Shown piece after piece: positions 1 to 58,534 of a stretch of 64,000 bases of DNA. Each line of letters begins with the position of its first letter. The stretch's first letter is position 1. The DNA lies in assembly GCA_964621445.1 (NCBI GenBank), contig CAZUNO010000006.1, positions 22,011-86,010 on the forward strand, written 5' to 3'. This DNA comes from Candidatus Hadarchaeota archaeon (GTDB taxonomy: Archaea; CAYQAE01; CAYVLA01). The position numbers were made by a program, and so were the translations under genes. The notes under the pieces are model-generated. The model made no database searches and was not told where the DNA came from. It was given only the letters and a program-made list of their open reading frames with translations.

Positions 1-317
1 TGTTCGTTGCTAAACAGCCAGACCTCGATATCCAGGAGTATCATGTAATCATATTCCAGGAGTTCGGGGTGATTTCGAGGAAAATAGATGCGAACAAATC
101 TCCTCAGCTCCCGAAACGACCAGCCCCTGGCCTTGGATCGGGCTGGGATTACCAAGTACTCGCATGACGGATCGATTCTCAACCAACCCGAAACCAGGAT
201 AATTTGGCTCTGGGCACTGGTTATCAGGACATTCGCCGGTTTCGGGTTGGCCGCCTCGGCCATGGGCCCCAGGAAGCCCAATACCAACAGGACCGTTAAT
301 GCCGGAAACTTCAGCAT
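1..317 (-). CDS. Family A surface protein, N-terminal part (runs off window edge; absent from ORF track)
   Basis: Manual translation from ATG 317: MLKFPALTVLLVLGFLGPMAEAANPKPANVLITS...LRRFVRIYFPRNHPELLEYDYMILLD. Signal peptide plus the RxY[FMT]PR..L..YD motif of the seven other paralogs; TATA-like CTTATTA 25 nt upstream. Confidence 0.85.
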   Translation of the reverse strand, partial: MLKFPALTVLLVLGFLGPMAEAANPKPANVLITSAQSQIILVSGWLRIDPSCEYLVIPARSKARGWSFRELRRFVRIYFPRNHPELLEYDYMILLDIEVWLFSNE

Positions 318-361
318 CGAGTACCTAAGGCCGGGCAATGCCTAATAAGCTTGGCCGGGGA

Positions 362-2251
362 TCAGTCCCGATTAGGGACCACGGGTTTTTGCGGGGCATA
401 GCCGGGTCTCTCGATCTCCAGATCCTCGGTCATGGCCAGCAGGTGTGGTATGTCGAACTCCCGGAGCAGTCCAAAGCAGAATAAGGGGACCGAGTCCTCA
501 TAATTCACCGGCATTTCTATCAATCTCTTGAGGGAGTATTGTAGACCATCGAGATGTAGGTGGTGGAGGAGATCCGGCTCCAGGGCCGCAGCGCAGAGGG
601 CTCCCATGGAGGTGGAGGCTCCGGTGGCGGAGAGCCGAATGGTGGAACCCATATCGCGTGAAAAGCTTACCAATGAAAGTATCTGGCCGGTGAGAATTCC
701 CAGCGGTCTTTCGCCCACGGCGGAGACCATCATCTGGTATCCCGGAGGGCAATAGGACTCCCCGGTGCCAAATACATCGGCTGTGATGACGGTTCTGTTC
801 CGTGAGAGATGGTCCTTTGCGGGATTCATCAAGTCTCTTCGACCCTTATCCGAGATTAGAATCTGTATCTCCGCCATCTCCTGGTGGAAGGAGGTTATGG
901 GAATCGACCAATCATCTCCCAGCCGGAGGACTTCCTGGGAAACTGGCCCGTCCTCTTCCAGGATATCCCTTTCAGTCTGGTAGTGCCTTAGTCGTATGAT
1001 CGTTCTTAGCCTGTCCCTGGAATCTCGGATCCATTTCACCCTGTGGGGATCGTCCATATCCGGGATATCGTGTTCAGGCAGGTCCTTTGCAGCCTCCCTG
1101 GCAATGGATAGCAGGGTTTGGTTCTCCCTTGGAATTCCCACCGATAGTTGGGACTGGCTGAGGAGTTCATCCTCGAAAGGTAGATCTGACTCGGGGGTAT
1201 CCAGTTCAAAGTGCCGGTTCAGGAACCTATAGAGGCGGCCTCGATTGTCCGCCTCGTAGTTGTGGGTTCCGGGATCCGTGTTCTCGTAGAAATCGAGGTT
1301 TTGACCCTCACCCAGGAGCTTGAATAGTGGCAGCACCGGTTCGTAGATGCTTTTCCTGGTCCTTTCCGACCTGAAGCAGCAATCATCCATCTTATTGTAT
1401 ATAAGCAGGGTAGGCCTGGGGGCACAAAGAGCGGTCATGGCATCGTAATCCCCAACCGAACAGAAGTCAACTGGATTCTGCTCAAGGTCCCCGATATCCG
1501 GATCGTGTGATGGCCGCTGCCATATCGGGGAGTGTCCGGCAACCGGTATTATTGCCCTCACCCTCTGGTCCAGGGAGCTCAGAACTATGGTCTGCCACCC
1601 TCCTCCCGAGAGACCGGTGACCGCAACTCTCTGGGGATCACAATTTGGATGGGATAGAAGCACGTCGAGTCCCCTCTTCGCTGCCAGGTAGAGGGCCCCA
1701 ACCCCCGCCATCCCACAGAGATCGATGTGTCCGATCCTATAGTGAGGAAGGTTCATGCTCAGTTCGCCCATCCCTATGAATTCGGTGTTTAGTGCCATCA
1801 TTCCCCTCTTGACCAGATTGATGCACCTGGCCTGCTTGTAGTCCATGGCCTTTCCGCCGATATGGTGCCCGTTGGTGTTCATGACCCCCGGCACCTTGTC
1901 CTCTAGGTCATCCGGTTCGTATAGCAGAGCTGGTATCCACATCCCCGGATAACCCTCGTAGATCAGTTTCCGTATCTTGTAGCCATGGGAGGTTTCGATG
2001 GTTTCCTTCCATTCCACCTTTGGTTCCAGTTCGGATAATTCGCCTGGCAGGCCCTTCATGTATACATCGTTCAGGAACCGCTTTCTTAGATTAGCGGACT
2101 CCCCAAGCCATTCTTTCGAGCTAAGGGGGGTCTTGAACCGGTGGGCCCGCTTGGTAATGAACCGGTGGACCTCTGACTTATCCGGCTTCTCGTGATCGCT
2201 TTCGGGAAGCAACCTTTGTTGCAATGACTGCTTGATCTCCTCATCCTTCAT
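362..2251 (-). CDS. Acetylxylan-esterase-like alpha/beta hydrolase with degenerate second hydrolase domain
   Basis: Nucleophile elbow TGLSGGG, IPALLYEP, NGHH, GTHNY. Start moved to ATG 2251 (MKDEE) behind a GAGGTG Shine-Dalgarno, avoiding overlap with the divergent gene. Confidence 0.8.
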   Translation of the reverse strand: MKDEEIKQSLQQRLLPESDHEKPDKSEVHRFITKRAHRFKTPLSSKEWLGESANLRKRFLNDVYMKGLPGELSELEPKVEWKETIETSHGYKIRKLIYEGYPGMWIPALLYEPDDLEDKVPGVMNTNGHHIGGKAMDYKQARCINLVKRGMMALNTEFIGMGELSMNLPHYRIGHIDLCGMAGVGALYLAAKRGLDVLLSHPNCDPQRVAVTGLSGGGWQTIVLSSLDQRVRAIIPVAGHSPIWQRPSHDPDIGDLEQNPVDFCSVGDYDAMTALCAPRPTLLIYNKMDDCCFRSERTRKSIYEPVLPLFKLLGEGQNLDFYENTDPGTHNYEADNRGRLYRFLNRHFELDTPESDLPFEDELLSQSQLSVGIPRENQTLLSIAREAAKDLPEHDIPDMDDPHRVKWIRDSRDRLRTIIRLRHYQTERDILEEDGPVSQEVLRLGDDWSIPITSFHQEMAEIQILISDKGRRDLMNPAKDHLSRNRTVITADVFGTGESYCPPGYQMMVSAVGERPLGILTGQILSLVSFSRDMGSTIRLSATGASTSMGALCAAALEPDLLHHLHLDGLQYSLKRLIEMPVNYEDSVPLFCFGLLREFDIPHLLAMTEDLEIERPGYAPQKPVVPNRD

Positions 2252-2354
2252 CAAAATGACACCTCGTGGGGAGAATATTGGTGGAAAGAAAAGTATTCCC
2301 TTCGTGTGAAGGGTAATTTTTATTCGACCGGCTACCCGAGAAAATTGTTGGTAG

Positions 2355-3572
2355 ATGGATAGCACAGAAGCAATGGCGTTGATCCTTGCTTTTGCCATAT
2401 GGATATCGGCAATAACTACGGTTCAGGGCACGCGAATTAGCCCTAACGGCAGGATTAGGACCATATGCTTTGGGGATATAATCGATCAGACTGGCGGTTA
2501 CAACAGCTATGTGGTCTTTCGTCAGGACCCATCCATTGAAACCACCTTCGTTCCTACTAGACCGGACTATCTCGGCGGCATTGAAAACGCTCTCCGGAAC
2601 ATGAGGGTATACATGCCCAGGACGTATGGAAGCCTGGTCCGATCCTACGACATAGTGGTAAGTAGCGATGCGGACCGGTCGGTGTTTACCACCGAGTGGA
2701 TAGGCTGGATATCGGATTCGGTGAGGGAGGATGGCCTGGGCATTCTGTGGCTAGGAAGCATAGCCCACGAAAGTTTTGTCTCCTGGGAGGGCACAACGGT
2801 TACCGATGTGCTTCCCTGCACACAGGTGGTCACCTCTCTGGGGAAATTCTGGTTGCATGGAAAGACCCTGAGGGTCAGGATATGGCAACCGGAGGAGCCC
2901 TTGATGAAGGCCTTGCCATGGGAGGAATCACCCCCGCTATCCAACCTTAATCTTCAGACCCCGAAATCGGGGAGCGATGTTTGGGCCCGAGTTGACCAGG
3001 GCAATCATCCCCTGATCAGTTTTTGGAACGTGGGGGACGGCGCGGGTCTAAACTTTGCCAGCAAGTTTCCCGGAGGGGTTTCCAGATGGGCCGAGGATTG
3101 GGAGTATTTCCCTCAGGCCATGATGTACCTGGTTTACCGGGTGGCGGAGAAGGACCTCCCGGACGACCCACATCTCTTCAGAGCGGCCATAACCGGGTTC
3201 ATTGAATTCGAGCAGTTCAACTCAATATTGGTCTCGCTAATTTCCTGGGTGGAGAAATTCGGGGGAAGCACGGTCAGGCTTTCGCAGATGGTTGAGGATT
3301 TGGAGGCCGCCCGGATGGATGCCTATAGCCATTACCTGGAGGGAGACATGCAGGCAACCATCGAATCCCTTCGCGAAACAAGGGAACGCCAAATTGAGAT
3401 CCGGGGGGAAGCGGTGAAGGCAAAGGACAGGGCCTTGCTATGGATCTATGTAATCGAGTGGTTCATACTTATGCCAACTCTGATGATATCCGGTTTTGTT
3501 CTCTGGACGCTCATGGTAGAGAAGAGGCTATACAGGGAGGTAGGCCTGTCCAGGTTTTCGCCCGGTGAATAG
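2355..3572 (+). CDS. Family A single-pass surface protein
   Basis: Signal peptide; RVYMPRTYGSLVRSYD; VEKFGGST; tail ALLWIYVIEW...GFVLWTLMVEKRLYREV. Confidence 0.85.
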   Translation: MDSTEAMALILAFAIWISAITTVQGTRISPNGRIRTICFGDIIDQTGGYNSYVVFRQDPSIETTFVPTRPDYLGGIENALRNMRVYMPRTYGSLVRSYDIVVSSDADRSVFTTEWIGWISDSVREDGLGILWLGSIAHESFVSWEGTTVTDVLPCTQVVTSLGKFWLHGKTLRVRIWQPEEPLMKALPWEESPPLSNLNLQTPKSGSDVWARVDQGNHPLISFWNVGDGAGLNFASKFPGGVSRWAEDWEYFPQAMMYLVYRVAEKDLPDDPHLFRAAITGFIEFEQFNSILVSLISWVEKFGGSTVRLSQMVEDLEAARMDAYSHYLEGDMQATIESLRETRERQIEIRGEAVKAKDRALLWIYVIEWFILMPTLMISGFVLWTLMVEKRLYREVGLSRFSPGE

Positions 3573-3867
3573 GCTAGAGAGTCGGTCGGTTTCCACATAT
3601 CTATTCAGGAAATCTCAAAACTCGACGAGCTGAGCACCTTGGTCTATGATTAATCCCTTGAGCATTCTCGGGAACATCCCTCAGAAGCATGATGTGAAGG
3701 CAGCGAATATCCTTTTCCCGGCCCTAAATCCCAATCAACCCTTTCGAGATGGCCAACCCAGGGCCCGGTAAGCCCTTGCTACACCCACTCAGGAAGGGGG
3801 TTTATGATTAGACTGATGTCAGCGGACCACAAGAGATATGAGATGTTGATCCTCTCCCCACCAACGG

Positions 3868-5721
3868 ATGGGACCCCAGGATGAAGAGGCGGGCGTGGTC
3901 GATTATTCAAACAGCCCTTATGGTGGGATGGCCGGATTGCCACTTCACAAGGTCGACCTGAAGAAGGGTTTCTGGCAGGAACGCGTGGAGGCCGGAAGGA
4001 GAAATGGAATCCCCGGTTACCTCCGGTCCCTGGAGGAACATGGGGTATTGGACAACTTCCGTAGATTATCGGGGAGGGAGGGTGTTGAGAGAAGTGGTCC
4101 CGTCCACATGGATTCCGACCTTTACAAGTGGGTGGAGGCCGCTTCATACAGCCTCAGCACCACCCCCGATAAAAAACTGGAGTCGGAGCTTGAGACCGTA
4201 ATTGACGTCATAAGGTCCGCCCAGGACGAGGACGGGTACCTAAACACCTACTTCGTGGAAGAGAGGGCGGACGACCGTTTCTCTAATCTCAAGGACGACC
4301 ATGAGCTGTACTGTGCCGGACATCTAATACAGGCAGCGGTGGCCCACTATAGATCCACAGGAGAGCGGAAGCTTCTCGAATGTGCCCTTGAATTCGCCGA
4401 TTACCTAGCATCGGTATTCGGCCCCGGGAAACGACGGGGGTTCAGTGGACACCCGGAATTGGAGATGGCCCTCGTCGAGCTCTATCGCACCTCCGGGGAC
4501 GGGAAGTACCTGGACCTCGCCGACTATCTCCTGGACCAATTGGGTTTTTCCCAAAGACGCGAGATGAAGGGCCATGCGGTGAGGGCCTGCTATGCCTGTT
4601 GCGGGGGAGCTGATCTCTATGCCGAGACCGGTCAGGAAGGGATGAGAAGGGCACTGGAATCTCTTTGGAGCGACATGTCAAGTAGAAAGGTGTATGTCAC
4701 CGGGGGAGTTGGTGCCAGGCATGCCGGGGAGAGCTTCGGCCAGGCATATGAACTTCCCAACCTGAGAGCTTACTCGGAGACCTGCGCCGCGATCTCGAAT
4801 GCAATGTGGGACTGGAGAATGTTGCTCCTTACCGGGGAGTGCAGGTATGCGGATATGATGGAAAGGGTGCTATACAATGGATTCTTGTCAGGGGTTTCAC
4901 TGTCGGGGGATCGCTATTTCTACGTGAACCCCCTGGAGAGCTCCAGTGATCCCGAGATGGGTAACTGGGGCCATGAAAGAAGGGAATGGTTTAGCACTCC
5001 CTGTTGCCTTGGAAACGTTCAGCGAATGTTGGCCTCCCTGCCCGGGTATATCTACGGGCGGGAGGACCAAGCCTTGTGGATCAACCTGTATCAGAGCTCG
5101 GATCTGGAAACCAGGATAGGAACCAGTAGGGTTAACCTGGTTCAGCGGACCGATTATCCCTGGTCGGGGAAGGTCAGGATAAAGGTCGAGTGTGATCCAG
5201 GGAGGGATTTCTCCCTCATGGTGCGGATACCATCCTGGAGCCAGGAGACAAGGGTAACCCTGGAAAATGAGGAGCTGAATGCCCGACCGGGAACCTACCT
5301 GGAGATTGAACGGGAGTGGAATGGCGCTGAGCTTGTACTGGAACTCGATATGCAGGCTCGGTTGCTTGGCTCTCACCCCATGGTGAGGGAGGATTTCGGG
5401 TCGGTGGCCATCAGCAGGGGTCCCTTGGTCTATTGTCTGGAGAGCATTGACAACCCGGGAATCGATGTCAGGAGGGTCATGGTTGGCCCGGATGTTGAGC
5501 TTGATTATGAGTTCAAGCCCGATGTCCTGGGAGGCATCGGCACCGTGGCCTTTGAAGGACTAGAGATTCTGGATGCGGGGGATCTGTATGCGAGCAGAGG
5601 TGAAAGGGCCCCGAAGCTGCGTGAATGCCGGGTCCAGGCCATTCCATACTATGCATGGGCGAATAGGGGGAGATCCTCTATGCTGGTTTGGGTGCCGGTA
5701 TGTCCATCAAGGTGGATTTAA
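3868..5721 (+). CDS. Glycoside hydrolase family 127 (beta-L-arabinofuranosidase-like)
   Basis: DSDLYKWVEAA, HELYCAGHLIQA, GHAVRA, YSETCAAI, PCC, IPYYAWANRG are GH127/HypBA1 motifs. No signal peptide. Confidence 0.93.
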   Translation: MGPQDEEAGVVDYSNSPYGGMAGLPLHKVDLKKGFWQERVEAGRRNGIPGYLRSLEEHGVLDNFRRLSGREGVERSGPVHMDSDLYKWVEAASYSLSTTPDKKLESELETVIDVIRSAQDEDGYLNTYFVEERADDRFSNLKDDHELYCAGHLIQAAVAHYRSTGERKLLECALEFADYLASVFGPGKRRGFSGHPELEMALVELYRTSGDGKYLDLADYLLDQLGFSQRREMKGHAVRACYACCGGADLYAETGQEGMRRALESLWSDMSSRKVYVTGGVGARHAGESFGQAYELPNLRAYSETCAAISNAMWDWRMLLLTGECRYADMMERVLYNGFLSGVSLSGDRYFYVNPLESSSDPEMGNWGHERREWFSTPCCLGNVQRMLASLPGYIYGREDQALWINLYQSSDLETRIGTSRVNLVQRTDYPWSGKVRIKVECDPGRDFSLMVRIPSWSQETRVTLENEELNARPGTYLEIEREWNGAELVLELDMQARLLGSHPMVREDFGSVAISRGPLVYCLESIDNPGIDVRRVMVGPDVELDYEFKPDVLGGIGTVAFEGLEILDAGDLYASRGERAPKLRECRVQAIPYYAWANRGRSSMLVWVPVCPSRWI

Positions 5722-5766
5722 TTGCAGTCGGGAGATAGGCAATGGGAAGGCCAGGTCCTTACCTTT

Positions 5767-5772
5767 TTTATA
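5767..5772 (+). promoter_or_regulatory. TATA box, probable leaderless promoter
   Basis: TTTATA ending 22 nt before TTG 5795. Confidence 0.55.
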
Positions 5773-5794
5773 GGTAGGAATAGGATTCAATATA

Positions 5795-7031
5795 TTGAAG
5801 CTTGCTATAATTCTTGCATGCGCGGTAGTTCTCCTAATCCTTACACCCATCTATGGGGAGAACGGTGAGCGGGCTCTGGACTTCTTTCTACTGGGTGATG
5901 TATCGGGGTGGCCCAACCATCTTGGTGATGATGAGCCGGCAGTGGAGCTGACTCTAGTACCCTGCCGGGCATTCGGCCAGGATATCTCGGACGAGTTCCT
6001 GTTCAGGTGGAGCAGGATATATTTTCCCCGGGGGAAGAGCCAACTGCTTGAATATGACGTTTTGTTCCTTGCCCGTCCCAGGTTGAATTTCTTCACCATA
6101 AATCAGCAGGAAATGATGGTCGATTTTATCGGTACGGGCGGGCGGGTTTCAATTGCTTACCCCTTGAGCCATTACAGGGAGGTACAGGAGCCCTGGATGA
6201 ACAGCCCCATATCGGATACCATGCCCATAGATTTCGATCGTTTCGTGATCGCGGTTCGCGAGGGGCTAGGACAGTGGGGGAGCCGGGGAAAGGGTTTTGC
6301 GGAGTTGGAGTTGGTTTCCGGAATGCCCCCGATCTTCAGCCCCTTTGGGAAAACCGAGGCCTTTTCGGGCCATATATACGAGCAGTTCAGGCCTGCATAT
6401 GCCAAACAGGGAGCCAGCGTTTGGATTCGGGCGGTCAACGGTCCCCCGTTGGAGCCAACTGTCCCGGCTTTCATTTCCTGGGAGTATGGGAAACCAAACC
6501 TGGGGATTTGGGATACAGCCTGGAATTGGCAGGAATCACTGGCAAGTAGCGGGAGAATGGTGGGAATTGATGTTCCTAAACCTCTGCTATCACACAAAGG
6601 GCATGGAGACCATGAATTATGACGATGCGCTGATGAAAATCAGCGTCAAGTCGTCCTTCTCGGATTACAGAAATTCCCTTTCAATGTTTCATAATATTGT
6701 GGACTTCGTTTCTCGGGTGGGAGCAAACACTGCGTCGGCTGACGATGTTATCCTGGAGGGTCAGGAGCGGTATCACCAGGCCGAGAATTTCTATCTGGAC
6801 GGGAATTACGACCAGGCTGACGCCAAGATGGCCGATGCCTTGATGGTTATCTCCGAGGCAATGGATAGGGCCACCAGGGCCAAGGACCGGGCCCTGACCT
6901 GGATCTATATATCGGAGTGGATGGCAACCATGGGCGTGGCCTTGTTTTCAGGTATCGTGCTCTGGTGGCTGATGGTCAGGAGGAGATTGTATCATGAGAT
7001 ACCGACCACGGAGCTGGATAGGTCCGGGTGA
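5795..7031 (+). pseudogene. Family A surface protein split by a frameshift near 6488-6500 (pseudogene or sequencing error)
   Basis: ORF 5795.. has the signal peptide, RIYFPRGKSQLLEYD and AFISWEYG. ORF 6297..7031 continues NQTWGFG...VSRVGANT...ALTWIYISEW...LMVRRRLY. Joined, they give a normal family length of about 410 aa. Confidence 0.8.
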
Positions 7032-7111
7032 GAAGAACGGAGAACAATATATTCAATAATGGCTCACTTTTTTCATCATCGATGCCTGCGAGTTTGTTCC
7101 CTGAAATCGTC

Positions 7112-8359
7112 ATGAAGGCTACCGGCAAGATCCTGGGAGCACAAAATCTTGTCCTGATCATGATTCTCATGCTGGCATTCCCAAGTGCGGAGGCCCAGGA
7201 AACTGAAAACAACTTCATTCTGATAGGTCAGGTTTTTCCCCATGAGTGCCCGGTCCCCGGATGGCTCGAGAAACAGCCGGGATTTGAGTTCATATTGATA
7301 CCGACTGATACCGATAAGCTGGCCCTCGATCAGGAGGCCGCCAAGAGATATGTGAGGCAATACTTCCCAAGGACCAAAACCGATCTATTTGCCGTGTATG
7401 ACTTCGTGGTCATGCCCGATACAAACATCCATCCATTCACCACCACCCAGATAGCCTGGATGGAGGAGGGATTCAGGGAGCACGAGATCGGGGCCTTTGT
7501 GACCGTGGGGGCCGATGTGTCGGGTTCCTACGAAAATGACTGGTTGGATTCCCCGCTTCATGATGTTCTTCCCATAAACCTAAAGGACCAGTACCGCGTT
7601 GGCTCCTACTTCACGATCAGGATAAAGAAGGAGGAGCCACCGGTTCTATCCATGTTTCGCGATAAGGATATAGAGAGCTATGAGGGTAGTTGCCCCTGTT
7701 CCCGAAGTTTTCCCAGGCCGGGAGCGACGACCTGGGCCGAAGCGTCCTACACGGGAACCGGCCTTGTTTACCCCTGGTTGGTTTCCTGGAAATTGGGAAC
7801 GGAAGGGGGTCACATATGGACCGCGGCAGACGACCTGGATCATCAGTGGTGGTGGCCTGGTGGGGTTAGAGTTCAGTCCACGAATCCCTACGCGGGGGAT
7901 GTTTTCATGAATATCGTGTTCTACTCCCTGGGCCGCCCTCTTCCCGAGGATATCTCCCTGATACACATGATCCGCGACCGGTTCGACGTCTATAAGACCG
8001 ATAAGCAGCTTATCATCGGGGTGATAAACTGGGCCGACAAGCTGGGTGCCAATACCGATAAGGCCGAGTCCGCACTCGCCAGGGTGGAGGAGATTCACCA
8101 GGACGCGATTCATAAGTACTCTCAGGGCCAGTACGAGGAGTCGCTTGATGCTCTCGACTCGGCTATGGAGGAGGCCAAGAAGGCACTGGAGGTTGCCTAC
8201 GAGACGAAGAGGAATGCCATGTTCTATATCTACCTCGTTGAGTGGCTGGCAACCACGGGCGCCCTTCTTCTCAGCGGGTCCGTGCTGTACACCTTGATGG
8301 TGAGAAGACGGCTCTACCGTTCTATAGAGACCACAAGACTAGCGAGGCAGGAGGAATAG
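7112..8359 (+). CDS. Family A single-pass surface protein
   Basis: Start moved to ATG 7112 (MKATGK..., signal peptide); RQYFPRT; ADKLGANT; YIYLVEW...GSVLYTLMVRRRLY. Confidence 0.85.
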   Translation: MKATGKILGAQNLVLIMILMLAFPSAEAQETENNFILIGQVFPHECPVPGWLEKQPGFEFILIPTDTDKLALDQEAAKRYVRQYFPRTKTDLFAVYDFVVMPDTNIHPFTTTQIAWMEEGFREHEIGAFVTVGADVSGSYENDWLDSPLHDVLPINLKDQYRVGSYFTIRIKKEEPPVLSMFRDKDIESYEGSCPCSRSFPRPGATTWAEASYTGTGLVYPWLVSWKLGTEGGHIWTAADDLDHQWWWPGGVRVQSTNPYAGDVFMNIVFYSLGRPLPEDISLIHMIRDRFDVYKTDKQLIIGVINWADKLGANTDKAESALARVEEIHQDAIHKYSQGQYEESLDALDSAMEEAKKALEVAYETKRNAMFYIYLVEWLATTGALLLSGSVLYTLMVRRRLYRSIETTRLARQEE

Positions 8360-8362
8360 AGG

Positions 8363-9217
8363 ATGGAGGGGAGCAAGCTCCGCAGTTACCTGGCTATCTT
8401 TCTGATAGTAATCGTGATATCTACATCGCTGACCGCAGTCGCCTGGATTTGGAGGGAGGGGGGAATCCGTAAGCTGTCATTGAGCGGGCCAGATTACATA
8501 TTCCAAGCGGCTCAAGGGACGGCCACCTTATCCCTAACCGTCTCACCCCAGAGCAAGCTCGATGTGCTGGAGTTCCGGTTCCGGTCCCTGGTGGAAAGGG
8601 ACATGTCGGAGCTCAACCTAAACGTCTCGATGGTGCGGGACTTGGAGGACCTAAGATACGCCTGGGCCTCGGTGGAGGATCGCCTGAAATATTTTGATCT
8701 CATCGAGGCAGGGGATTACGTCTCGGTCCACAATGTTTCAATCACAAATGAGGAGGACCTGAGGATGGTTCTTTTCGACTTCGGGAAGTTGTACTCCTGT
8801 CTTTACGATTCAAGGCATGACAATGAGTCCCTGACCTCCTATGCATTCCTGCTTAACTCGACCAACCACATAGTTGGTTGCTTCGAGGGGTATTCGGATT
8901 TCGTGGCCGTGAGGAAGAAGAGAGGGGTCCTGCTGACCAGGAATGACGTCCTGAGGCTAGTCCGCGTCCAATCGGGGGAAGAGGTGGAGGAGTACTACGG
9001 AGATGCTGATGCGGAACCCTCCACTGAGGACCTTTCCCCTTGGGGACAGATAGCCTTTGAACAGGTGGAGACCGATGAACCGTACGGGGTGACCTTGATC
9101 ATCAAGGAGGGAAAGCTATCCACGGGAAGGTTGATTCTTTGTGCGGAGACCTTTGGGGATGGTAGATGGTATCCGGAGTGCTCCGGGTACTGGCTGGTTA
9201 AAACGGAGTTGGACTAG
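8363..9217 (+). CDS. Family B membrane-anchored protein (N-terminal TM), paralog of 55132..55977
   Basis: N-terminal hydrophobic helix; blocks TLSL..., YAFLL...EGYSDF and GQIAFEQV are shared with the paralog. Confidence 0.8.
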   Translation: MEGSKLRSYLAIFLIVIVISTSLTAVAWIWREGGIRKLSLSGPDYIFQAAQGTATLSLTVSPQSKLDVLEFRFRSLVERDMSELNLNVSMVRDLEDLRYAWASVEDRLKYFDLIEAGDYVSVHNVSITNEEDLRMVLFDFGKLYSCLYDSRHDNESLTSYAFLLNSTNHIVGCFEGYSDFVAVRKKRGVLLTRNDVLRLVRVQSGEEVEEYYGDADAEPSTEDLSPWGQIAFEQVETDEPYGVTLIIKEGKLSTGRLILCAETFGDGRWYPECSGYWLVKTELD

Positions 9218-10252
9218 ATGCGTAGGCTCATTATACTGATGGCGATCATTCTCCTGTTTCCGGTGGTTCACTCCGGCTCCGATCCTCTCGTGCTCGTCGG
9301 GTGTTTTGACGGTCAGAGATACCCTCCCATGTTCTGCCCCAATTACACGGGGGAGATAGCTGAGATATCGAGAGAGGCCATAAACGCCGAGCACGGCGAT
9401 GGAATTCAGGTGATGGAGGTGGGCGACTGGTTCTTTCTTCTGGACTCCCTCAACCAGCCCAACGTGATAGGAGCCGTAATCTCGGCCCGGGAGGGTCGCT
9501 ACAATCTTTCGGATCTTAAGCAAGAGGAGCTGATCGAATCATTCAAGGAAGGTCTGGGTTTGGTGGGGTTACATGCTGTTGGTCACTACACCTTCACGGA
9601 GAGAGTTGCCGAAGAGGTCTTTCCCCTAAACGGAACCAAGATCGGCACCGGTGTAATCCACCGAAATGATGTGATTACATCCAGGCATACCCATTCGAAA
9701 TATACCGAGCATCCGGTAAATGAGGGTTCGCCTGATGAGATGGAGATACCCGATTCTGGCCTGGTGTACCATGACCCGGTTCCCGACCAGGGGTGGTGGC
9801 TTCCTGACTCGGGGGAGGTAACAGTTCTCTACACCGCAACCACGGTGAGGGGAGAGGACCAGTTACCATCGATAATTGCCTATCAACATGGATCCGGGAG
9901 GTCGGTCACCTTTGGGGGACTTCGTCATATTGATGCACCAGGCCGCTACAGGCGGGACCCCGGATGGTACAACCACTCGTTAGCCATTCCCGAGGTCAGG
10001 AATCTCATTGCTAGTTCCTTGGTTTACGTGCTGGAACCATTTGCCACTGAGGATGCCCTCCAGGATCAAAGGGATGAAACCGAGCAGTATCTGGAGGAAA
10101 AGCTGGGTGATCTTGAGAGTCAGATTCAAAGAGGGCAGGAGGCGGTTAGAAGACGTGAACGTCAGGTTCTGATGCTGACCGTGGCAATAGCACTGGGTGC
10201 GGTTGTTGCTGTCGCTATCCTAGCCTACTTCGGATTTGTTAAGGGGAGTTAA
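9218..10252 (+). CDS. Family C surface protein: ThuA/class I GATase-like domain, coiled coil, C-terminal TM
   Basis: Signal peptide; GLGLVGLHA and YQHGSGRSVTFGG resemble ThuA-like motifs; C-terminal TM; paralog of 54019..54996. Confidence 0.78.
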   Translation: MRRLIILMAIILLFPVVHSGSDPLVLVGCFDGQRYPPMFCPNYTGEIAEISREAINAEHGDGIQVMEVGDWFFLLDSLNQPNVIGAVISAREGRYNLSDLKQEELIESFKEGLGLVGLHAVGHYTFTERVAEEVFPLNGTKIGTGVIHRNDVITSRHTHSKYTEHPVNEGSPDEMEIPDSGLVYHDPVPDQGWWLPDSGEVTVLYTATTVRGEDQLPSIIAYQHGSGRSVTFGGLRHIDAPGRYRRDPGWYNHSLAIPEVRNLIASSLVYVLEPFATEDALQDQRDETEQYLEEKLGDLESQIQRGQEAVRRRERQVLMLTVAIALGAVVAVAILAYFGFVKGS

Positions 10253-14755: not shown

Positions 14756-14865
14756 AACTATCCCGGATTGGTGGGTTGGTAGGCTTTCTTAAATGTGAAT
14801 GGCGTTCAGATCTGGGAAAAAGGTTAAGAGCATTACCAAGTGGTTTGGAAGGGAGACAGGTATCA

Positions 14866-33228: not shown

Positions 33229-34470
33229 TCAGCTCTCCGCCATCTTGGTGGCCTTAACGGTCCTGTACAATCTCCTCCTGACCATCAGGGACCAGAGGAT
33301 GAACCCGGATATGAAGAGCGTGGATACCGAGACCAGCCATTCCACAATGTAGACCCAGATTAGCGCCTGGTTCTTGACCTCGGTGGCCACCCGTTTTGCC
33401 TGGGGAAAGCGATCCAAGGCAGATGCCATGACTTCTTCGCACTTCGGGAAATCCTGTTCCATGTATTGTTCGATGGCCTGTTCGTAGAAATCCTCGATTT
33501 CCCATATTTCATCCCTGATTCTCTGGGTATTGGCACCGAATTTGTCCACGAAGTCCTTTACCGAATAGAGAACTGCGATACGGTTCCTGTACTCGATGAA
33601 ATACGCCTTAAGTCTGTGGAAAACCTCGACGTCCTCTATGAGATCCCTCTTGGTGGAGTACAGGAAGATGTTCACCAGCATGTCAGGGCCATAACGGTGT
33701 GAAGTTGGGCTCTTCGAGTATTGTATCAGGGGCCCGGGTACAAAGCCGCCACAGGTCAGGGTTCTCCCGCTCCCGTAATCCCAGGCTATGAGGAAGGGGA
33801 CCCTTCCCTTTCCGGGGAAGTTCCCGATTTGCCAGGCCATGGTCCGGGCCGTTTCCCGGGGTATCACCAAACGGGAGGCGGCCGTATACTGTTTCTCGAC
33901 ATCGAAGGGGATGAAGGGGGTGAGAACGGGATCCGGGAAATCGGGATCTATGACCACCTTAAAGGTGTTGGTTGCGCTTTCTCCTCCCGCCTTTTCGGCG
34001 ACGGCCGGAGCGTCATTTGGGAAAGCCTTTTGAGTCTGGGAGTTGGCCCAGGCTCCGTGGATCTGGGAAACTATGCTGAAAACGCTTCCATCATTTAGCC
34101 CTCCAGCCCCGCCCTCTATGGCATCGTGCATCCATTTATCCTGGGTGGAGCTGAAGAGGTTGTATTCGGTTGCGGTAAGGTAGAGGAAGTCGTATTGGCG
34201 AAGGTCCTGGTAACTTCGGGGGAAATAGAGCCTGATGAATTTCTTTGCATCCTCCCGGCTGACTATACCTGTATCCCTGGATGGCACGGTGATATATTCC
34301 ACTAATGGTTCGTTGTCCAGGTAAAACTGGGCGGCTCGGAGCTGTCCAAAATGCCCGGTTATCAGAATATTGATCTTCTCATTGGAGCCAACCCCACTGG
34401 GAACGAGGAGGTGGAGGGCTAGCACTGATAATAGTGTCAGGAAAAGGGCCCTTCTGCCCATGTTTTCCAT
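33229..34470 (-). CDS. Family A single-pass surface protein (start may be ATG 34461)
   Basis: Signal peptide; RLYFPRSYQDLRQYD; VDKFGANT; ALIWVYIVEW...GFILWSLMVRRRLY. Confidence 0.86.
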   Translation of the reverse strand: MENMGRRALFLTLLSVLALHLLVPSGVGSNEKINILITGHFGQLRAAQFYLDNEPLVEYITVPSRDTGIVSREDAKKFIRLYFPRSYQDLRQYDFLYLTATEYNLFSSTQDKWMHDAIEGGAGGLNDGSVFSIVSQIHGAWANSQTQKAFPNDAPAVAEKAGGESATNTFKVVIDPDFPDPVLTPFIPFDVEKQYTAASRLVIPRETARTMAWQIGNFPGKGRVPFLIAWDYGSGRTLTCGGFVPGPLIQYSKSPTSHRYGPDMLVNIFLYSTKRDLIEDVEVFHRLKAYFIEYRNRIAVLYSVKDFVDKFGANTQRIRDEIWEIEDFYEQAIEQYMEQDFPKCEEVMASALDRFPQAKRVATEVKNQALIWVYIVEWLVSVSTLFISGFILWSLMVRRRLYRTVKATKMAES

Positions 34471-50573: not shown

Positions 50574-50658
50574 GTTAATTCCACTGCCGACTAATCCGGA
50601 TGTGCTTATTTGTCTTTCCCGGAGAGCTCCTCATCGCTAACCTGAGGTAGGTGGCCCT

Positions 50659-51321: not shown

Positions 51322-51437
51322 ACCACGATATCCAATTGCCGAAATGTAATATGAAATTTTTCCAGAGTTGAGTTTAAGGATGTTTAAGCTTTAGTTGGAT
51401 GAGGGTAAATAAGGACCAGGATTGGTGAGCATTAATA

Positions 51438-52757: not shown

Positions 52758-52810
52758 AATTTTAAAAGGGAACATTATTTTGATACCGACCTAATGGTTA
52801 GGTGATAAAC

Positions 52811-53914: not shown

Positions 53915-54018
53915 AGTCCAAGGTCCAGATTGATGGACTTTTTAAGTTAATGAGCCCGATTTAGGGGAAGAACCACGCGGAATATCTTGGTGGGACTTCA
54001 GGAAGCGATCTTGAACCC

Positions 54019-54996: not shown

Positions 54997-55131
54997 TGAC
55001 TTAGATCTGCTTATGCTCTCTGATAAGTATTTCGAGTTGATTGGGCTCCTGGCTTAATGGGGTATCGTTTTACGTGGAAAAGTACTTATAAGGTGGTAAT
55101 CAAGTTCCAAGTCCGGATGAGATGTTGAGCC

Positions 55132-55977
55132 TTGTTGGATAGGAGGCTTATTGGACTACTGGGCATGGCGGTACTGGTCTCGACCGCGTTCGCGGTCATA
55201 TTCTTCGTTGATACCACGGAGGAGGATATTGAGATAATCAGGAACTATTGGCAGGCCCCAAGTCTGGAAGGTTGGAAACGTCTTCCCCTATCAGAGGAAA
55301 TGGTGCCTTACACCCTCAGTCTGGTGGCAAGAAAGCCGCTCGAGGAACTATCCATCCGGTTTGGTATTCTGAGAAACAATACCCTGGATGTTAACTATAC
55401 AGGATGGCAGGACCTGAGCATCAAGCAGAAAGCCCTGAGGGTTGGTAGCCTGGACTATCTGGATTCCCGGGCCACCGATATCTCGGAGGGCCTGGATGTG
55501 GAACCGATTGAACAGGAATTTGAACTAGTTCTCCGGGAAGAGGAGTACCGAGTCTATATTATAGATTATCATCCCTGCATTGCACCCCTGGCTAGCCCAA
55601 TCGCGTCAATTGATGTTCCATACATCTTTGCGTTTCTGTTCGATGGAGAAGGGAACATCTCCCAGTATTATTCGGGATATTGGGACTTCTTTGAGAAGCG
55701 AGAGCTGAGCATTCAGGACATGACCATCCAGCTGAATGAAAATGCAACCAGATATGCCAATGATCAGAACATGGGCGAGGGAGATCTCCCCCTTAACAGG
55801 ACCTTGGAAATGCTGGGAAAGATCACCTTCAATGAATTGAAGCCCGATGATCGGGTGTTCATCACATATAGGGTCAATGGTGGGGCAGTGTTGGGGGAGG
55901 AAGCATTCATGCAGATAATCCGCCTAAACGTTAATGGGGAATATCGAACACCCCTCATCAATATACTGAAGAGATAG
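55132..55977 (+). CDS. Family B membrane-anchored protein
   Basis: N-terminal TM; TLSLVARKPLEELSIRF, FAFLF...SGYWDF and GKITFNEL align with 8363..9217. Confidence 0.8.
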   Translation: MLDRRLIGLLGMAVLVSTAFAVIFFVDTTEEDIEIIRNYWQAPSLEGWKRLPLSEEMVPYTLSLVARKPLEELSIRFGILRNNTLDVNYTGWQDLSIKQKALRVGSLDYLDSRATDISEGLDVEPIEQEFELVLREEEYRVYIIDYHPCIAPLASPIASIDVPYIFAFLFDGEGNISQYYSGYWDFFEKRELSIQDMTIQLNENATRYANDQNMGEGDLPLNRTLEMLGKITFNELKPDDRVFITYRVNGGAVLGEEAFMQIIRLNVNGEYRTPLINILKR

Positions 55978-55994
55978 CTTGTCTTCCCCGGATG

Positions 55995-57209
55995 CTAGTT
56001 TTCTTTCATTTTGGTCATCGATACCTCGCTGTAGAGGCGTCTTTTCACCATCAGGCTGTAAATCACGAATCCGGCCAGGATGGCCGTGCCGGTCACTGCG
56101 GTCCATTCGGTGAGGTAGACCCAGAACAGGGCATTTTCCTTCATCTCTATCGCTTTCTTATTAAGCTCCGAAAGCTTGTCTATCATGTCCTGAATCTCTT
56201 CGAGGGAGGCTTCATACTCCCCTTCCAGATAGAGGTCCCGAGCAATGGATCGACCATCATCTGCTTGCGCGATCTCCTCTTCGAGCTCGCCGGTGCTGGT
56301 GCCGAAGGAGTCAACAAAATCGATCATGGAATAAATCAGGTTCTTTTCGATGTTGTAATTATTGAAGGAATCTCTCAGATCGTGGATCAGGAATATATTG
56401 GATGGGAGATCCTTGCCCACCGAGTAGTAAATCATGTTTAGCATCAGATCACCGCCGTATTCGTTATCGTTCCTTCTCCTGAACCAGGACTCGTCCGCGT
56501 CTATTCCTATGACCCAGTTCTCTGCATCATTTTCCCCGTAAGTCCAGGAGATGACGAATTCCTCCTTTGGAACGTTTGAAAAACTCGGCTTAATGGCCCA
56601 GGCCCAGGTGGTGCTCCCGGCCTTGGGGTACATCGCTCTGGCCTTTTCGCCCTGGATTTTCTCGATGCCCAGCGGGACGAACATGGTAAACACCGGCGGG
56701 TTGTCCTCGACGACATCAACTTTGAAGGGAGCGAGCTCGGGTTTTTTGAAAATCTGGGTAAATTTTTGGGGGAATACCTCGGCAAGTGGCGATTGGGTCA
56801 GGGAATAATAGCCCTCGATATCCGGCCATAGAGTTAGCATTGAGGAGACGCCGGCGTCAACGGAATCCCTGAACCTGTTCATCTCCTTTCCGCTGAACCA
56901 TTCCATCCTTGGTTCAAGAAGAAGCAAAATATCATATTCATCCAACAGTCTTTCCAGGGTTCGCGGGGTATATATTCGAGTGATCTTCTTGGCCTCGGAA
57001 GCGCTGAGAAATCCGACATCGGTTGGTAGTTCCTGCCACTGTATGGCGAAATCCAGGGAAAGCCACCCGAGAATGGGGGATTCTCCGAAACTGGTATCAC
57101 CGATGCACAGTACTCCGATTCTATTTGTTGAGTCAAAGTGTTGCGCGCAGTTACCTGCGGTTAACATCACAGAGAAAATTAATACTAGCAGAGGATACCG
57201 GAAGTACAT
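55995..57209 (-). CDS. Family A single-pass surface protein
   Basis: Signal peptide; RIYTPRTLERLLDEYD; VDSFGTST; ALFWVYLTEW...GFVIYSLMVKRRLY. Confidence 0.86.
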   Translation of the reverse strand: MYFRYPLLVLIFSVMLTAGNCAQHFDSTNRIGVLCIGDTSFGESPILGWLSLDFAIQWQELPTDVGFLSASEAKKITRIYTPRTLERLLDEYDILLLLEPRMEWFSGKEMNRFRDSVDAGVSSMLTLWPDIEGYYSLTQSPLAEVFPQKFTQIFKKPELAPFKVDVVEDNPPVFTMFVPLGIEKIQGEKARAMYPKAGSTTWAWAIKPSFSNVPKEEFVISWTYGENDAENWVIGIDADESWFRRRNDNEYGGDLMLNMIYYSVGKDLPSNIFLIHDLRDSFNNYNIEKNLIYSMIDFVDSFGTSTGELEEEIAQADDGRSIARDLYLEGEYEASLEEIQDMIDKLSELNKKAIEMKENALFWVYLTEWTAVTGTAILAGFVIYSLMVKRRLYSEVSMTKMKEN

Positions 57210-57289
57210 TATTGGCCCTTCCCTGTTTGCGCCCCCGATTATTGGTTAAAACTCTTATCCAGAGAATTGTATATCCAGGATATTGTCCT

Positions 57290-58534
57290 TTACCTTCCAC
57301 GTGTTGTCTTAACCCTGCGATATAGCCGTCTTCTCACCATCAGGGTCCAGGTTAAAAAACCGGCCATAGTAATTATCCCGGTTACGGTAAGCCACTCCAC
57401 CATGTATACCCAGAGCAGTGTGCTTTTCTTCATCTCCACGGCCTTCGATTCCAGCCGTTTTATCATATTGAAAATCTGGCTCATCTCGGCTGATGAAATC
57501 TCAAATTTCTGTGAAAGGTAGTTCTCCTCGGCCTTGGATCGCATGGACTCGATTTCCCCGATTTCGTCCTGGAGCTTCCGACTGCTGGCTCCGAACTTCT
57601 CGATAAAATCCAGTAGAGAGTATAGGCTGGAGAATCTTAGTTTATATTCCGTAAATTGATTTCTCAATCGGTGGACCACCAGGGGGTCCTGGGGCAGCTC
57701 CCAGCGACAGCTATACCACGCTATGTTAACGAAAATGTCTAGGGAAAAACGCTGCTTTCCGTCTGCTCCCCACCAGGACCCCCACATTGGGCTGACGAAC
57801 TGGTCGCCCGTTGCCCAGATCCTCGAACTTTCGTCCCCGTATTCCCAGGATAAAAGGAGGGGGCAGTTGATAAACCCCATATTTGCAAAGGACTGGATAT
57901 CCCTGGCCCTGGCCCACACGGTGGAGCCTTCCTTCTCGTGCAAGGCCCGCGTGTAGCCAAAGGGCTTAACCCTCTCTATTCCCAATTCCTTATATGGCCG
58001 GATCACTGGAGGCAGGGATTTGTCATCATTGATCTCCAGGGTATAGGGTTCAATTCCTTTATTGACTCCCTCCAGGAATCTCTCCTGGTCGTGGGGAAAA
58101 GCCCGGGGAAGCTTGGAATTCATCCACGGGCCGTATACCTCCTCATTTTGGCTCTGGGTAAATGCGAGAGATCCCTTTCCCTCATCCATGAGCATCTGGT
58201 AGAGCCATTCCACGTGCCGATTCTCAAAGTGGCCAAGAACCGGCTGGTCGAAAAGGAAATAATCATACTCAAGGAGATCCTCATAGCTCCGGGGAAAATA
58301 TATCCTTATGAATCTACGTAACTCGCTATTGCTAAATATGGCAGCGTGAATGGATCTGGATACCACGAGAGTTGAGGTCATGGAGGGCTCTATGCTGGTA
58401 AAAGCTGAAATCGGGCTATAGCTCGGATCAACCTGTCCAATGGCCAGGGTCTCTATTCGAATCCCGGATGCAATAGTCGACGGAAGGAATAGGAATAGAA
58501 TTATGAAGGTTTGCAGACAGGTCCTGGAACTCAT
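57290..58534 (-). CDS. Family A single-pass surface protein
   Basis: Signal peptide; RIYFPRSYEDLLEYD; IEKFGASS; LLWVYMVEW...GFLTWTLMVRRRLY. Confidence 0.86.
   Translation of the reverse strand: MSSRTCLQTFIILFLFLPSTIASGIRIETLAIGQVDPSYSPISAFTSIEPSMTSTLVVSRSIHAAIFSNSELRRFIRIYFPRSYEDLLEYDYFLFDQPVLGHFENRHVEWLYQMLMDEGKGSLAFTQSQNEEVYGPWMNSKLPRAFPHDQERFLEGVNKGIEPYTLEINDDKSLPPVIRPYKELGIERVKPFGYTRALHEKEGSTVWARARDIQSFANMGFINCPLLLSWEYGDESSRIWATGDQFVSPMWGSWWGADGKQRFSLDIFVNIAWYSCRWELPQDPLVVHRLRNQFTEYKLRFSSLYSLLDFIEKFGASSRKLQDEIGEIESMRSKAEENYLSQKFEISSAEMSQIFNMIKRLESKAVEMKKSTLLWVYMVEWLTVTGIITMAGFLTWTLMVRRRLYRRVKTTRGR

Follow-up and report, generated by a model that had tools for sequence, protein, structure and literature searches.

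The closest described relatives of the proteins analysed here are the members of Pfam PF07090 (GATase1_like), with solved structures from Planctomyces limnophilus (3rht) and Salmonella (2gk3, STM3548; 3soz, STM1381). The solved proteins have chains of about 250 residues, and two carry the title of cytoplasmic protein; we know of no PF07090/GATase1_like member with a known function. ThuA-like proteins (PF06283; 1t0b, 4e5v, 4jqs) are related in fold, and the partners of ThuA are GFO/IDH/MocA oxidoreductases. GldG/ABC_transp_aux (PF09822) and archaeal DUF4350/IFT52_GIFT proteins are membrane-anchored and belong to the same fold superfamily, and GldG-type proteins pair one to one with an ABC-2 transporter. 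GATase1-like domains also act as oligomerisation domains in several glycoside hydrolases, GH42 being an example. Wbp1, as presented in an excerpt of its published description (PMC7226087), has a GIFT domain and a sole membrane helix that is enclosed by the helices of Ost2 and Swp1, and its proposed role is the recruitment of lipid-linked oligosaccharide or that of a docking platform.

Here we describe family A, in which a GATase1_like domain occurs in a fixed design of signal peptide, head, stalk and membrane helix in four examined genomes of one archaeal family. The host is an uncultured sediment archaeon, and its genome is labelled Hadarchaeota/Theionarchaea. The window, that is, the whole 64-kb stretch of DNA analysed, holds all eight copies reported by a first-pass annotation (Table 1). 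Seven had been counted as complete; the complete copies are six, because the copy at 5795-7031 is split by a frameshift. Of its two reading frames, 5795-6622 covers family HMM positions 9-247 and 6297-7031 covers positions 232-410. On this copy, a contig of run X1 (6205-6888) has 0 differences and one of run X2 (6770-7803) has 2, with no indel listed for either, and a relative, X3 (about 94% identical), carries 1-base insertions at 6489 and 6493. The copy at the window edge, whose minus-strand translation at 1..338 opens MLKFPALTVLL..., is itself split in the genome (ORFs G000:C6:21063-21875 and 21875-22348). The six intact copies measure 397-415 aa, close to the 400-415 aa given earlier, with pairwise identities of 24-44%. 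The minus-strand ORF at 58606-59826 was considered as a further member and rejected, being the DegT aminotransferase that adjoins the last copy. A separate family, B, is also found in the window, and its member at 8363..9217 combines an N-terminal membrane helix with a sequon-rich beta-sandwich.

Table 1. Family A copies, parts of the modelled copy and family B members in the window.
Feature	Position	Strand	Remark
Family A copy, N-terminal part	1..338	-	start at 317 or 338; gene continues beyond window edge
Family A copy, intact, 405 aa	2355..3572	+	sub-threshold PF07090 match, 23.7 bits vs cut-off 27
Family A copy, frameshifted	5795..7031	+	ORFs 5795-6622 and 6297-7031
Family A copy, intact, 415 aa	7112..8359	+	longest ORF start at 7028
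Family B member, 284 aa	8363..9217	+	3 bp behind copy 7112-8359
Family A copy, intact, 413 aa; used for modelling	33229..34470	-	AF2
Signal peptide of modelled copy, residues 1-28 (helix 3-22)	34387..34470	-	AF2 model
Alpha/beta head, residues 30-275, PF07090-type GATase1-like fold without triad	33646..34383	-	
Linker and three-helix stalk, residues 276-365	33376..33645	-	helices 281-310, 316-337, 341-
Membrane helix (about 366-398), basic tail RRRLYR..T.. (399-413), stop codon	33229..33375	-	
Family A copy, intact, 397 aa	43753..44946	+	directly behind heparinase II/III-like gene 41791-43722
Second family B member, 281 aa	55132..55977	+	convergent with family A copy 55995-57209
Family A copy, intact, 404 aa	55995..57209	-	tandem with 57290-58534
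Family A copy, intact, 414 aa	57290..58534	-	behind DegT aminotransferase gene 58606-59826

The window copies had suggested a larger expansion, and the genome indeed contains 166 ORF matches, equal to 149 loci. These comprise 114 intact copies, 4 that are nearly full-length, 16 broken into 2-3 ORFs, 5 short remnants and 10 truncated at contig ends, and they occupy 176,919 bp, or 5.5% of the 3.2 Mb genome, on 50 of its 89 contigs. Within the GTDB family of the host, three further genomes have from 115 to at least 150 matches each and the sole other genome of the phylum examined has none, a contrast that involves a single family-free genome and kin that are not independent. Family A thus consists of type I single-pass surface proteins that are restricted to one lineage and massively expanded there. 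Among the 114 copies, median pairwise identity is 27%; a copy and its nearest paralog share 52% at the median and 77% at most. Thirty-nine of them are closer to one of only 85 copies sampled from other MAGs than to their own paralogs. Many paralogs predate the split between genera, which indicates long retention and not rapid turnover, and on these sequence comparisons the repertoire looks old and retained.

The design is well defined in the AF2 model of the 33229-34470 copy (pLDDT 94.1, pTM 0.87), in which the third stalk helix runs unbroken into the membrane helix. A hydrophobic 12-mer lies ahead of the head in 111 of the 114 intact copies, and the cytoplasmic tail, of 13-29 residues (median 16 aa), has a mean net charge of +3.9. 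The motifs read in the first-pass annotation hold across the 114 copies, in the head (R80 96%, Y82 98%, P84 100%, R85 99%, D94 82%, W230 85%), in the LPxD linker (D280 83%) and in the stalk (F307 89%, F311 89%, G312 96%, A313 85%), where Y336 is also conserved. The earlier description of variable heads on a constant anchor agrees with the column entropy, which amounts to 1.43-1.47 bits for the membrane helix and tail and to 2.1-3.4 for the head. The membrane helix with its flanks is the most conserved segment of the family, and K366, A369, W372, E377, W378, G389, W393, M396, R399, Y402 and T408 are nearly invariant. The heads had also been called interchangeable; they are variable, but as diverged paralogs of one fold, with no domain swapping. 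Separate HMMs of the head, the stalk and the membrane helix plus tail recover the same genes, with one 78-aa ORF added by the membrane-helix HMM, and a search with stalk and membrane helix alone returned no protein beyond the same family of about 400 aa. At the thresholds used, no columns were kept within subfamilies and variable between them. The copies were also considered as archaeosortase/exosortase substrates (PGF-CTERM and similar), a candidate that was rejected: 13-29 residues run from the start of the basic cluster to the end, and the only such NCBIfam signal in the six copies was PVV_CTERM in one of them (E 0.075; 12.8 bits, cut-off 27). The genome has two Exosortase_EpsH genes, one of which adjoins a broken family A copy.

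A class I glutamine-amidotransferase-like fold had been inferred for the head, and the AF2 model with VIA and Foldseek searches supports it. VIA placed 3rht (Z 22.7) and 2gk3 (Z 22.6), with 207-217 residues aligned at 2.3-2.9 A, ahead of the next group at 15.1, and the best Foldseek matches were 2gk3, 3soz and 3rht (E 4.8e-9 to 1.1e-7). The ThuA-like proteins form the next-closest fold group (Z 14.5-15.1), clearly below PF07090, with a weak ThuA match in 1 of 94 family A members; the IFT52 N-terminal domain follows at Z 14.4. Atlas names the related clusters [quoted passage not shown], and its next-nearest clusters, GldG/ABC_transp_aux and DUF4350/IFT52_GIFT, have scores of 0.83 and 0.76 and count as leads only. 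No named family had been recognised at first, and this needs correction: by fold, and for some members by sequence, the head corresponds to PF07090, itself uncharacterised. The PF07090 HMM matches 27 of the 94 genomic members at E<=0.01 (best 3.6e-18); among the six intact window copies, one falls short of the cut-off of 27 with 23.7 bits and the other five are unmatched. The catalytic Cys, already noted as missing, is absent as a conserved residue, since across the 114 copies no position of the head exceeds 12% Cys or 18% His. A catalytic class I glutamine amidotransferase was rejected because the Cys-His-Glu triad, with its elbow nucleophile after the fourth strand, is not conserved. A GldG-type ABC accessory protein was rejected as well, with no PF09822 match in the 94 members at E<=0.01 and an ABC-2 permease in 1 of 66 operon-like neighbours. 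Judged from the model, the head is a divergent, non-catalytic PF07090 GATase1_like domain.

The outer part of family A is almost free of N-glycosylation sequons (N-x-S/T), an observation that is new here. In the 114 copies, 19 sequons are found against 145.3+-11.7 in shuffled sequences (ratio 0.13), and control patterns in the same test give ratios of 0.64-1.26. The depletion spans head and stalk alike, and it recurs in the 85 copies from three other MAGs, with 8 sequons observed and 86.6 expected. In the same genome, 66 other putatively secreted proteins are 1.7-fold enriched (193 against 110.8 expected), and 709 putatively cytoplasmic proteins have 842 against 937. The genome contains two STT3/AglB genes. 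Selection against sequons implies that the glycosylation machinery has access to the outer part, and, because sequons are purged there, that this part has to stay free of N-glycans. Archaeal binding proteins known so far are usually glycosylated, and so ligand capture alone fails to explain the purge.

The copies had been described as scattered among glycan-catabolic genes, which is true in part. By our own sorting of the Pfam tables, about 22 of the 66 operon-like neighbours are carbohydrate-active, but the others are diverse or unannotated, and housekeeping genes (ribosomal protein L21e, ThiC, PdxS) occur among the 66. No constant partner gene was found among the 219 non-family neighbours, which divide into numerous small groups of no more than 7 members. 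Near family A, there is a modest, about twofold enrichment of sulfatase, GFO and URO-D genes, and this may only reflect shared accessory regions; of the 44 sulfatase paralogs, for example, 7 are neighbours, compared with 219 of all 2879 genes. The four family-bearing genomes have 47, 19, 22 and 36 sulfatase matches and the family-free genome has 0. The 47 sulfatases of the host are mostly cytoplasmic, an N-terminal hydrophobic segment being absent from 42 of 44 paralogs. Canonical binding-protein importers are few (BPD_transp_1 6, BPD_transp_2 4, SBP_bac_8 0, SBP_bac_5 1, SBP_bac_1 1 weak). None of the RNA runs searched for the locus contains it.

We tentatively read family A as a set of diversified, unglycosylated recognition modules with a common membrane docking module, a predicted role that we consider possible, if short of probable. 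The head paralogs would form a repertoire of extracellular recognition modules, and their ligands would probably be glycans, or else other polymers of the surface or the environment. Every copy would couple to a common membrane partner or site through one invariant module, made of the juxtamembrane loop FGANT, the membrane helix YxxEW...G...W..M and the tail RRRLY....T, and the outer part would be kept bare of N-glycans. Ligand binding, the existence or identity of the shared partner and the tie to glycan use are what we infer in this proposal. That the membrane helix is so strongly conserved would be in keeping with a shared partner complex, and such a helix could also serve self-assembly, lipid contact or sorting. 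A further-reaching version is set beside the 47 mostly cytoplasmic sulfatases and the near-lack of classical sugar-binding proteins. Family A would here be the outer half of a new archaeal system for nutrient acquisition or sensing, with more than 100 sequon-free GATase1/GIFT-fold receptors, each for a different (sulfated) glycan, plugging by one invariant membrane helix and tail into one putative uptake or signalling machine. We hold this to be unlikely; if true, it would be a counterpart of the bacterial SusD/binding-protein repertoires from a different fold, and might be related by evolution to the OST48/Wbp1 design.

Other explanations have to be weighed against recognition modules. Structural envelope proteins, an unlikely reading, would be closely packed among themselves or against the surface layer, under which they would act as spacers or anchors, and glycans would be excluded because most of the surface is buried in protein contacts. 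The purge over head and stalk, the rigid stalk that passes straight into the membrane helix, the conserved juxtamembrane module and the fold match to GATase1-like domains of glycoside hydrolases such as GH42 all suit this packing. A scaffold, however, does not need 114 paralogs at 27% median identity that vary mostly in the head, and the copies are dispersed as single genes next to catabolic genes. These glycan-catabolic neighbours would suit extracellular enzymes with a non-GATase active site, for example on glycans, with one substrate per paralog. The hairpin 226-240 and the stretch 120-133, where true amidotransferases have their "nucleophile elbow", show entropies of about 1.0-1.1 bits within subfamilies against 1.8-2.0 between them, and Ser occupies position 132 in 60% of copies. 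We still regard enzymes as decidedly unlikely: the head has no family-wide conserved nucleophile or acid/base residue, the invariant R80, Y82, P84 and R85 seem, from secondary structure, to lie at the sheet end opposite the canonical active site, and the solved PF07090 members are without known activity, judging by their structure titles. The most doubtful reading is a surface-diversity repertoire, in which many bare surfaces on one anchor would serve kin or partner recognition or virus evasion. The very high copy number, variable heads and constant anchor would be expected of it, and about 21 of 149 loci are internally broken, which suggests turnover; but near-identical copies (maximum 77% identity) and cassette-like structure are lacking, and many paralogs predate the genus split, which speaks for retention over turnover.

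The copies could also be non-catalytic adaptors of the Wbp1/OST48 kind, whose membrane helix docks into a membrane glycosyltransferase or glycan-export machine, such as AglB or the unusual GT-C/ABC systems of the host. The heads would recruit lipid-linked sugars or particular acceptor proteins, and the sequon-free state would prevent glycosylation by the enzyme served, so the purge is compatible with this role. Like Wbp1/OST48, family A has a signal peptide, an outer domain of the GATase1/GIFT superfamily, and a lone C-terminal membrane helix followed by a short basic tail. Chains 6s7o_G (Z 13.8, 215 aligned) and 6c26_B (Z 12.1), which we take from their lengths to be OST48 and Wbp1, match the modelled head, and the genome offers two STT3 genes. 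However, PF07090 members are far closer in fold (Z 22.7), ThuA matches are also higher, and the OST48 model has no match among the 94 members at E<=0.01. The STT3 pair (C32:7184-9560) is about 13 kb from the nearest family copy (C32:22416-23597), and glycosyltransferases make up only 2 of the 66 operon-like neighbours (GT2, PMT_2). A set of over 100 adaptors serving only a few enzymes would be unprecedented, and we find this reading quite unlikely.

The scale of family A, its conserved membrane helix and the sequon purge point to a central, undescribed trait of how these sediment and microbial-mat archaea face their surroundings. The purge is a clear, testable signature of an outer part that is exposed and yet bare. 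If the heads bind glycans, recognition modules would explain how substrates are recognised in an archaeon that has few classical importers but whose cytoplasmic sulfatases and glycosidases number in the dozens. They would also be the first large natural set of specificity variants for the GIFT/GATase1-like superfamily, to which OST48/Wbp1 and IFT52 of eukaryotes belong.

Among known systems, the SusD-like and solute-binding proteins of polysaccharide-utilisation loci offer a functional analogy only, as large, diverged sets of surface-recognition paralogs among glycan-catabolic genes. Family A differs from them in its unrelated fold, in having no adjoining transporter gene and in its loose catabolic linkage (about one third of operon-like neighbours). 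GFO/IDH/MocA-type oxidoreductases are common neighbours of family A and echo the partners of ThuA, whereas ThuA-like proteins are without a membrane stalk. Wbp1/OST48 proteins, in the same excerpted account (PMC7226087), are type I and non-catalytic, with a GIFT-type outer domain, a helix docked among partner helices and a short tail. Unlike family A, they have a second luminal domain in place of the helical stalk and a single-copy gene, and no linkage of family A to STT3 genes is seen in this genome. The solved PF07090 members have their fold in common with the family A head, and neither group has a known function. Unlike these members, family A proteins also possess a signal peptide, a stalk of three helices, a conserved membrane helix and a basic tail, and they are sequon-depleted and present in about 150 copies per genome.

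Family A (signal peptide, GATase1-like head, three-helix stalk, membrane helix and basic tail) extends far beyond the window, bearing out the larger genome-wide expansion that the first-pass annotation had suspected. The genome to which the window belongs (G000) has 3.21 Mb in 89 contigs, and a profile of six window copies gave 150 scored matches among 177 candidates in it. A six-frame hmmsearch of this genome returned 166 ORF matches, which resolve into 149 loci. Intact loci number 114 and a further 4 approach full length; 16 are broken up into two or three ORFs, 5 survive as short remnants and 10 are truncated by contig ends. Together the family ORFs take up 176,919 bp, or 5.5% of the genome, and occur on 50 of the 89 contigs; most are solitary, with 89 singles, 27 pairs and a few longer runs when fragments are counted separately.

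The GTDB phylum consists of five species genomes, four of which belong to one family. Family A matches number 115, 148, at least 150 and at least 150 in the four genomes of that family, while the fifth genome, 98% complete, has no match. Among 36 other archaeal genomes sampled, 33 had no match and the remaining three had one or two weak ones (E 2e-5 to 2e-4). A 94-member profile run against 1.84 billion cluster representatives found 334 at E<=1e-30, 952 at E<=1e-10 and 4896 at E<=1e-3. From these few strong matches and the genome sampling, the core family is evidently narrow, roughly this lineage's own repertoire. The public relatives are labelled Candidatus Hadarchaeota, uncultured Thermococci or Theionarchaea, and the named matches are all "hypothetical" or "uncharacterized membrane protein". 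No published account of family A was found in the accessible portions of the literature on Hadarchaeota, Theionarchaea and PF07090/DUF1355/GATase1-like proteins, including PMC9258230.

Pairwise identity among the 114 intact copies has a median of 27%; identity to the nearest paralog, 52% in the median, reaches 77% at most. Moreover, 39 of the 114 are closer to one of 85 copies sampled from three other MAGs than to any paralog of their own genome. The copies form an old and retained repertoire, neither a recent burst nor a cassette system.

All eight places named in the first-pass annotation hold members of the family, but only six copies are intact, as one is frameshifted and another is the start of a split gene running past the window edge (see the table). 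The six intact copies are 397-415 aa long with 24-44% mutual identity, and have 27 invariant columns in common. These include the head's R..Y.PR, L..YD and W..G, the stalk's F and G, and the anchor's Y..EW, G, M and RLY. Two metagenome runs of the same population supply contigs that overlie the frameshifted copy with 0-2 differences, no indel being listed, while a relative of about 94% identity carries single-base insertions at 6489 and 6493, within the overlap of the two ORFs. The break thus seems genuine in this population and absent from that relative. Contigs of several metagenome runs end or branch inside family A copies, at about 3107-3144 and 6878-6991, the latter being the conserved stretch that encodes the membrane helix, and so the family's repeats break assemblies. 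A family ORF lies within 1.5 kb of 20 of the 178 contig ends. Five metagenome runs match positions 1-10000, all of them DNA (microbial mat, hypersaline lake); no RNA run covers this part among the runs listed.

Positions of family A and family B members and of other genes discussed (window coordinates unless a contig, C, of G000 is named)
Feature	Position	Strand	Detail
Family A, intact	2355-3572	+	ORF listing, translation
Family A, intact	7112-8359	+	ORF listing, translation
Family A, intact	33229-34470	-	ORF listing, translation
Family A, intact	43753-44946	+	ORF listing, translation
Family A, intact	55995-57209	-	ORF listing, translation
Family A, intact	57290-58534	-	ORF listing, translation
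Family A, frameshifted	5795-7031		ORFs 5795-6622 and 6297-7031
Family A, gene start	1-317	-	runs past window edge, itself split
Family B	8363-9217	+	
Family B	55132-55977	+	
Family B	G000:C13:43274-44101		example of 15 outside window
Family B	C32:23622-24512		example of 15 outside window
Family B	C5:142989-143816		example of 15 outside window
URO-D-like	10443-11534	+	
URO-D-like	26097-27161	-	
URO-D-like	61958-63058	+	
ABC-2 type transporter operon	21062-24899	-	one ATPase, two ABC2_membrane_3 permeases (one 597 aa)
3-keto-disaccharide hydrolase, PF12831 FAD oxidoreductase, GFO/IDH/MocA oxidoreductase	14111-16302 and 32188-33207		
STT3/AglB-type pair	G000:C32:7184-9560		divergent, head to head
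Exosortase_EpsH (archaeosortase)	G000:C19:25941-28000 (locus L097)		directly upstream of broken family A copy
Heliorhodopsin	G000:C40, locus L125:7339-8130		81 bp upstream of family A copy, same strand

Structurally, an AlphaFold2 model of the copy at 33229-34470(-), built on a 110-row alignment (mean pLDDT 94.1, pTM 0.87), has an N-terminal hydrophobic helix (residues 3-22), an alpha/beta head (33-272) and three long helices (281-310, 316-337 and 341-398), the third continuing unbroken into the membrane segment. On this model the head is a PF07090-type GATase1-like domain. In a VIA-align search of 48,161 chains its top matches are 3rht (Z 22.7) and 2gk3 (Z 22.6), followed at lower scores by ThuA-like chains (about 15), the IFT52 N-terminal domain (14.4), a GH42 domain (14.2) and two oligosaccharyltransferase chains (13.8/12.1), and Foldseek agrees with this ranking. 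By sequence, 27 of 94 members match PF07090 at E<=0.01 (best 3.6e-18), while among the six window copies one matches, below the cut-off. The amidotransferase triad is absent, since no head column of the 114 copies exceeds 12% Cys or 18% His; a GATase-like fold without catalytic Cys had been proposed from the window sequence, and the proposal holds. The family profile against solved structures gave only insignificant matches (3rht E 0.093, 2gk3 E 0.14, IpaD E about 0.07-0.2, RIO1 E 0.06), the stalk alone is best matched by designed three-helix bundles at Z about 10-10.8, below the meaningful level for helical folds, an archaeosortase sorting signal at the C-terminus is unsupported, and an NCBIfam scan of the window copies yielded nothing meaningful. 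A two-copy complex prediction for residues 24-413, run without controls, scored 0.00 and speaks neither for nor against self-association.

Head, stalk and anchor always occur together, as separate HMMs for the parts retrieve the same genes in this genome, with a single 78-aa ORF beyond the family, and residues 276-413 find 137 matches in the public collection, all of the same family and about 230-460 aa long. These 137 matches include no other head on the same anchor, and a search for longer proteins, which is weak evidence, found no fused forms of 724-2065 aa.

Across the 114 copies, variability is lowest in the anchor (KDRALLWVYvIEWLaVTGT.lisGFvLWTLMVRRRLYREV.TTRL), with a column entropy of 1.43-1.47 bits versus 2.1-3.4 bits in the head. 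Residues conserved at 90% or more are P55, R80, Y82, P84, R85, W141 and P151 in the head, G312 and Y336 in the stalk, and K366, A369, W372, E377, W378, G389, W393, M396, Y402 and T408 in the anchor and tail; for F311 and R399 the figure is 89%, rising to 90% or more in the 94-row alignment. Judging from the fold topology, the R80-R85 motif would lie at the opposite end of the sheet from the canonical active site, and the secondary structure would place Y336 at the head end of the stalk and the FGANT loop at its membrane end. These positions lead us to suspect that two elements are conserved, one a joint between head and stalk, the other a module of juxtamembrane part, membrane helix and tail. 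No specificity-determining columns (within-group entropy <0.45 bits, between-group >2.3 bits) were found with groups formed by single linkage at 42% identity, which are too broad, one having n=139.

The avoidance of sequons (N-x-S/T) in family A is a new finding. The outer parts of the 114 own copies (38,191 residues) hold 19 sequons against 145.3+-11.7 after shuffling (ratio 0.13), 13 of them at one alignment position (233/234), and the 85 copies of the three other MAGs hold 8 against 86.6 (0.09). For comparison, 66 other proteins of this genome whose only hydrophobic segment is N-terminal have 193 against 110.8 (1.74), 709 proteins without any hydrophobic segment have 842 against 937 (0.90), and seven control patterns range from 0.64 to 1.26. 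The genome encodes two STT3/AglB genes, which form a head-to-head pair of oligosaccharyltransferase type. Together with this depletion, the hydrophobic segment at the N-terminus of 111 of 114 copies and a tail charge of +3.9 support an outside topology. Read most simply, these data mean that N-glycosylation can reach the outer part, with selection acting against glycans over nearly all of it.

A second, smaller paralog family, family B, has 17 members in the genome. Each is about 280 aa long and carries a membrane helix at its N-terminus; the sequon density is 1.35 per 100 aa, versus 0.05 in family A. Its model has a beta-sandwich body, with a best fold match of Z 8.8, no clear relative and no Pfam match. 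For eight of the 17, a family A copy is listed as the gene next door, and in six of these cases the family B gene follows immediately downstream on the same strand.

A Pfam scan of the 219 non-family genes directly flanking family ORFs found them diverse; the largest similarity groups have 7, 6, 5 and 4 members, so no constant partner gene emerges among them. Within the 66 operon-like neighbours (same strand, no more than 100 bp away), we read the Pfam tables as assigning a carbohydrate-active or glycan-catabolic role to about 22, including sulfatases, GH38, GH95, GH116, GH127, heparinase-like proteins, esterases, FAD and GFO oxidoreductases and sugar isomerase-like proteins. The scattering among glycan-catabolic genes described earlier thus applies to part of the neighbourhood only, as 21 of the 66 lack any Pfam match and the others are mixed, with some housekeeping genes. 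Genes preceding family A copies in the window are AXE1-like, GH127, heparinase II/III-like, NHL-repeat and DegT. The window also holds, spread over two sites, genes for a 3-keto-disaccharide hydrolase, a FAD oxidoreductase and a GFO oxidoreductase, which are typical parts of oxidative (3-keto) glycoside cleavage routes, and an ABC-2 operon that adjoins no family A copy. Elsewhere, two Exosortase_EpsH genes occur, one beside a broken copy, and a heliorhodopsin gene precedes another copy. The URO-D-like (uroporphyrinogen decarboxylase fold) family is expanded to 16-23 paralogs and accounts for 8 of the 219 flanking genes.

Sulfatase matches number 47, 19, 22 and 36 in the four family A genomes versus 0 in the family-free genome, a single comparison among kin. 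As 42 of the 44 sulfatase paralogs of this genome have no N-terminal hydrophobic segment, degradation of sulfated glycans seems to be intracellular in this organism. It also has many apparently cytoplasmic glycosidases. Classical importers are few (BPD_transp_1 6, BPD_transp_2 4, SBP_bac_5 1, one weak SBP_bac_1, MFS about 7), with no SBP_bac_8 match.

Family A may, tentatively, be read as a set of diversified recognition modules, non-catalytic and unglycosylated, that share one membrane docking module. The many variable heads would serve recognition, and a single common docking module would serve all copies. Tightly packed envelope components, a view that the scarcity of sequons would also fit, we hold to be unlikely. 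Enzymes with a new active site are quite improbable, and we find it very doubtful that the variable heads form a surface-diversity repertoire.

Adaptors of membrane glycosyltransferases, akin to Wbp1/OST48, are rather improbable, because the structural score of the head to the putative oligosaccharyltransferase chains is far below its PF07090 score. The parallel between these subunits and family A is architectural. In the review PMC7226087, Wbp1 is a GIFT-domain protein whose sole membrane helix is surrounded by partner helices, and it is a possible docking or recruiting subunit.
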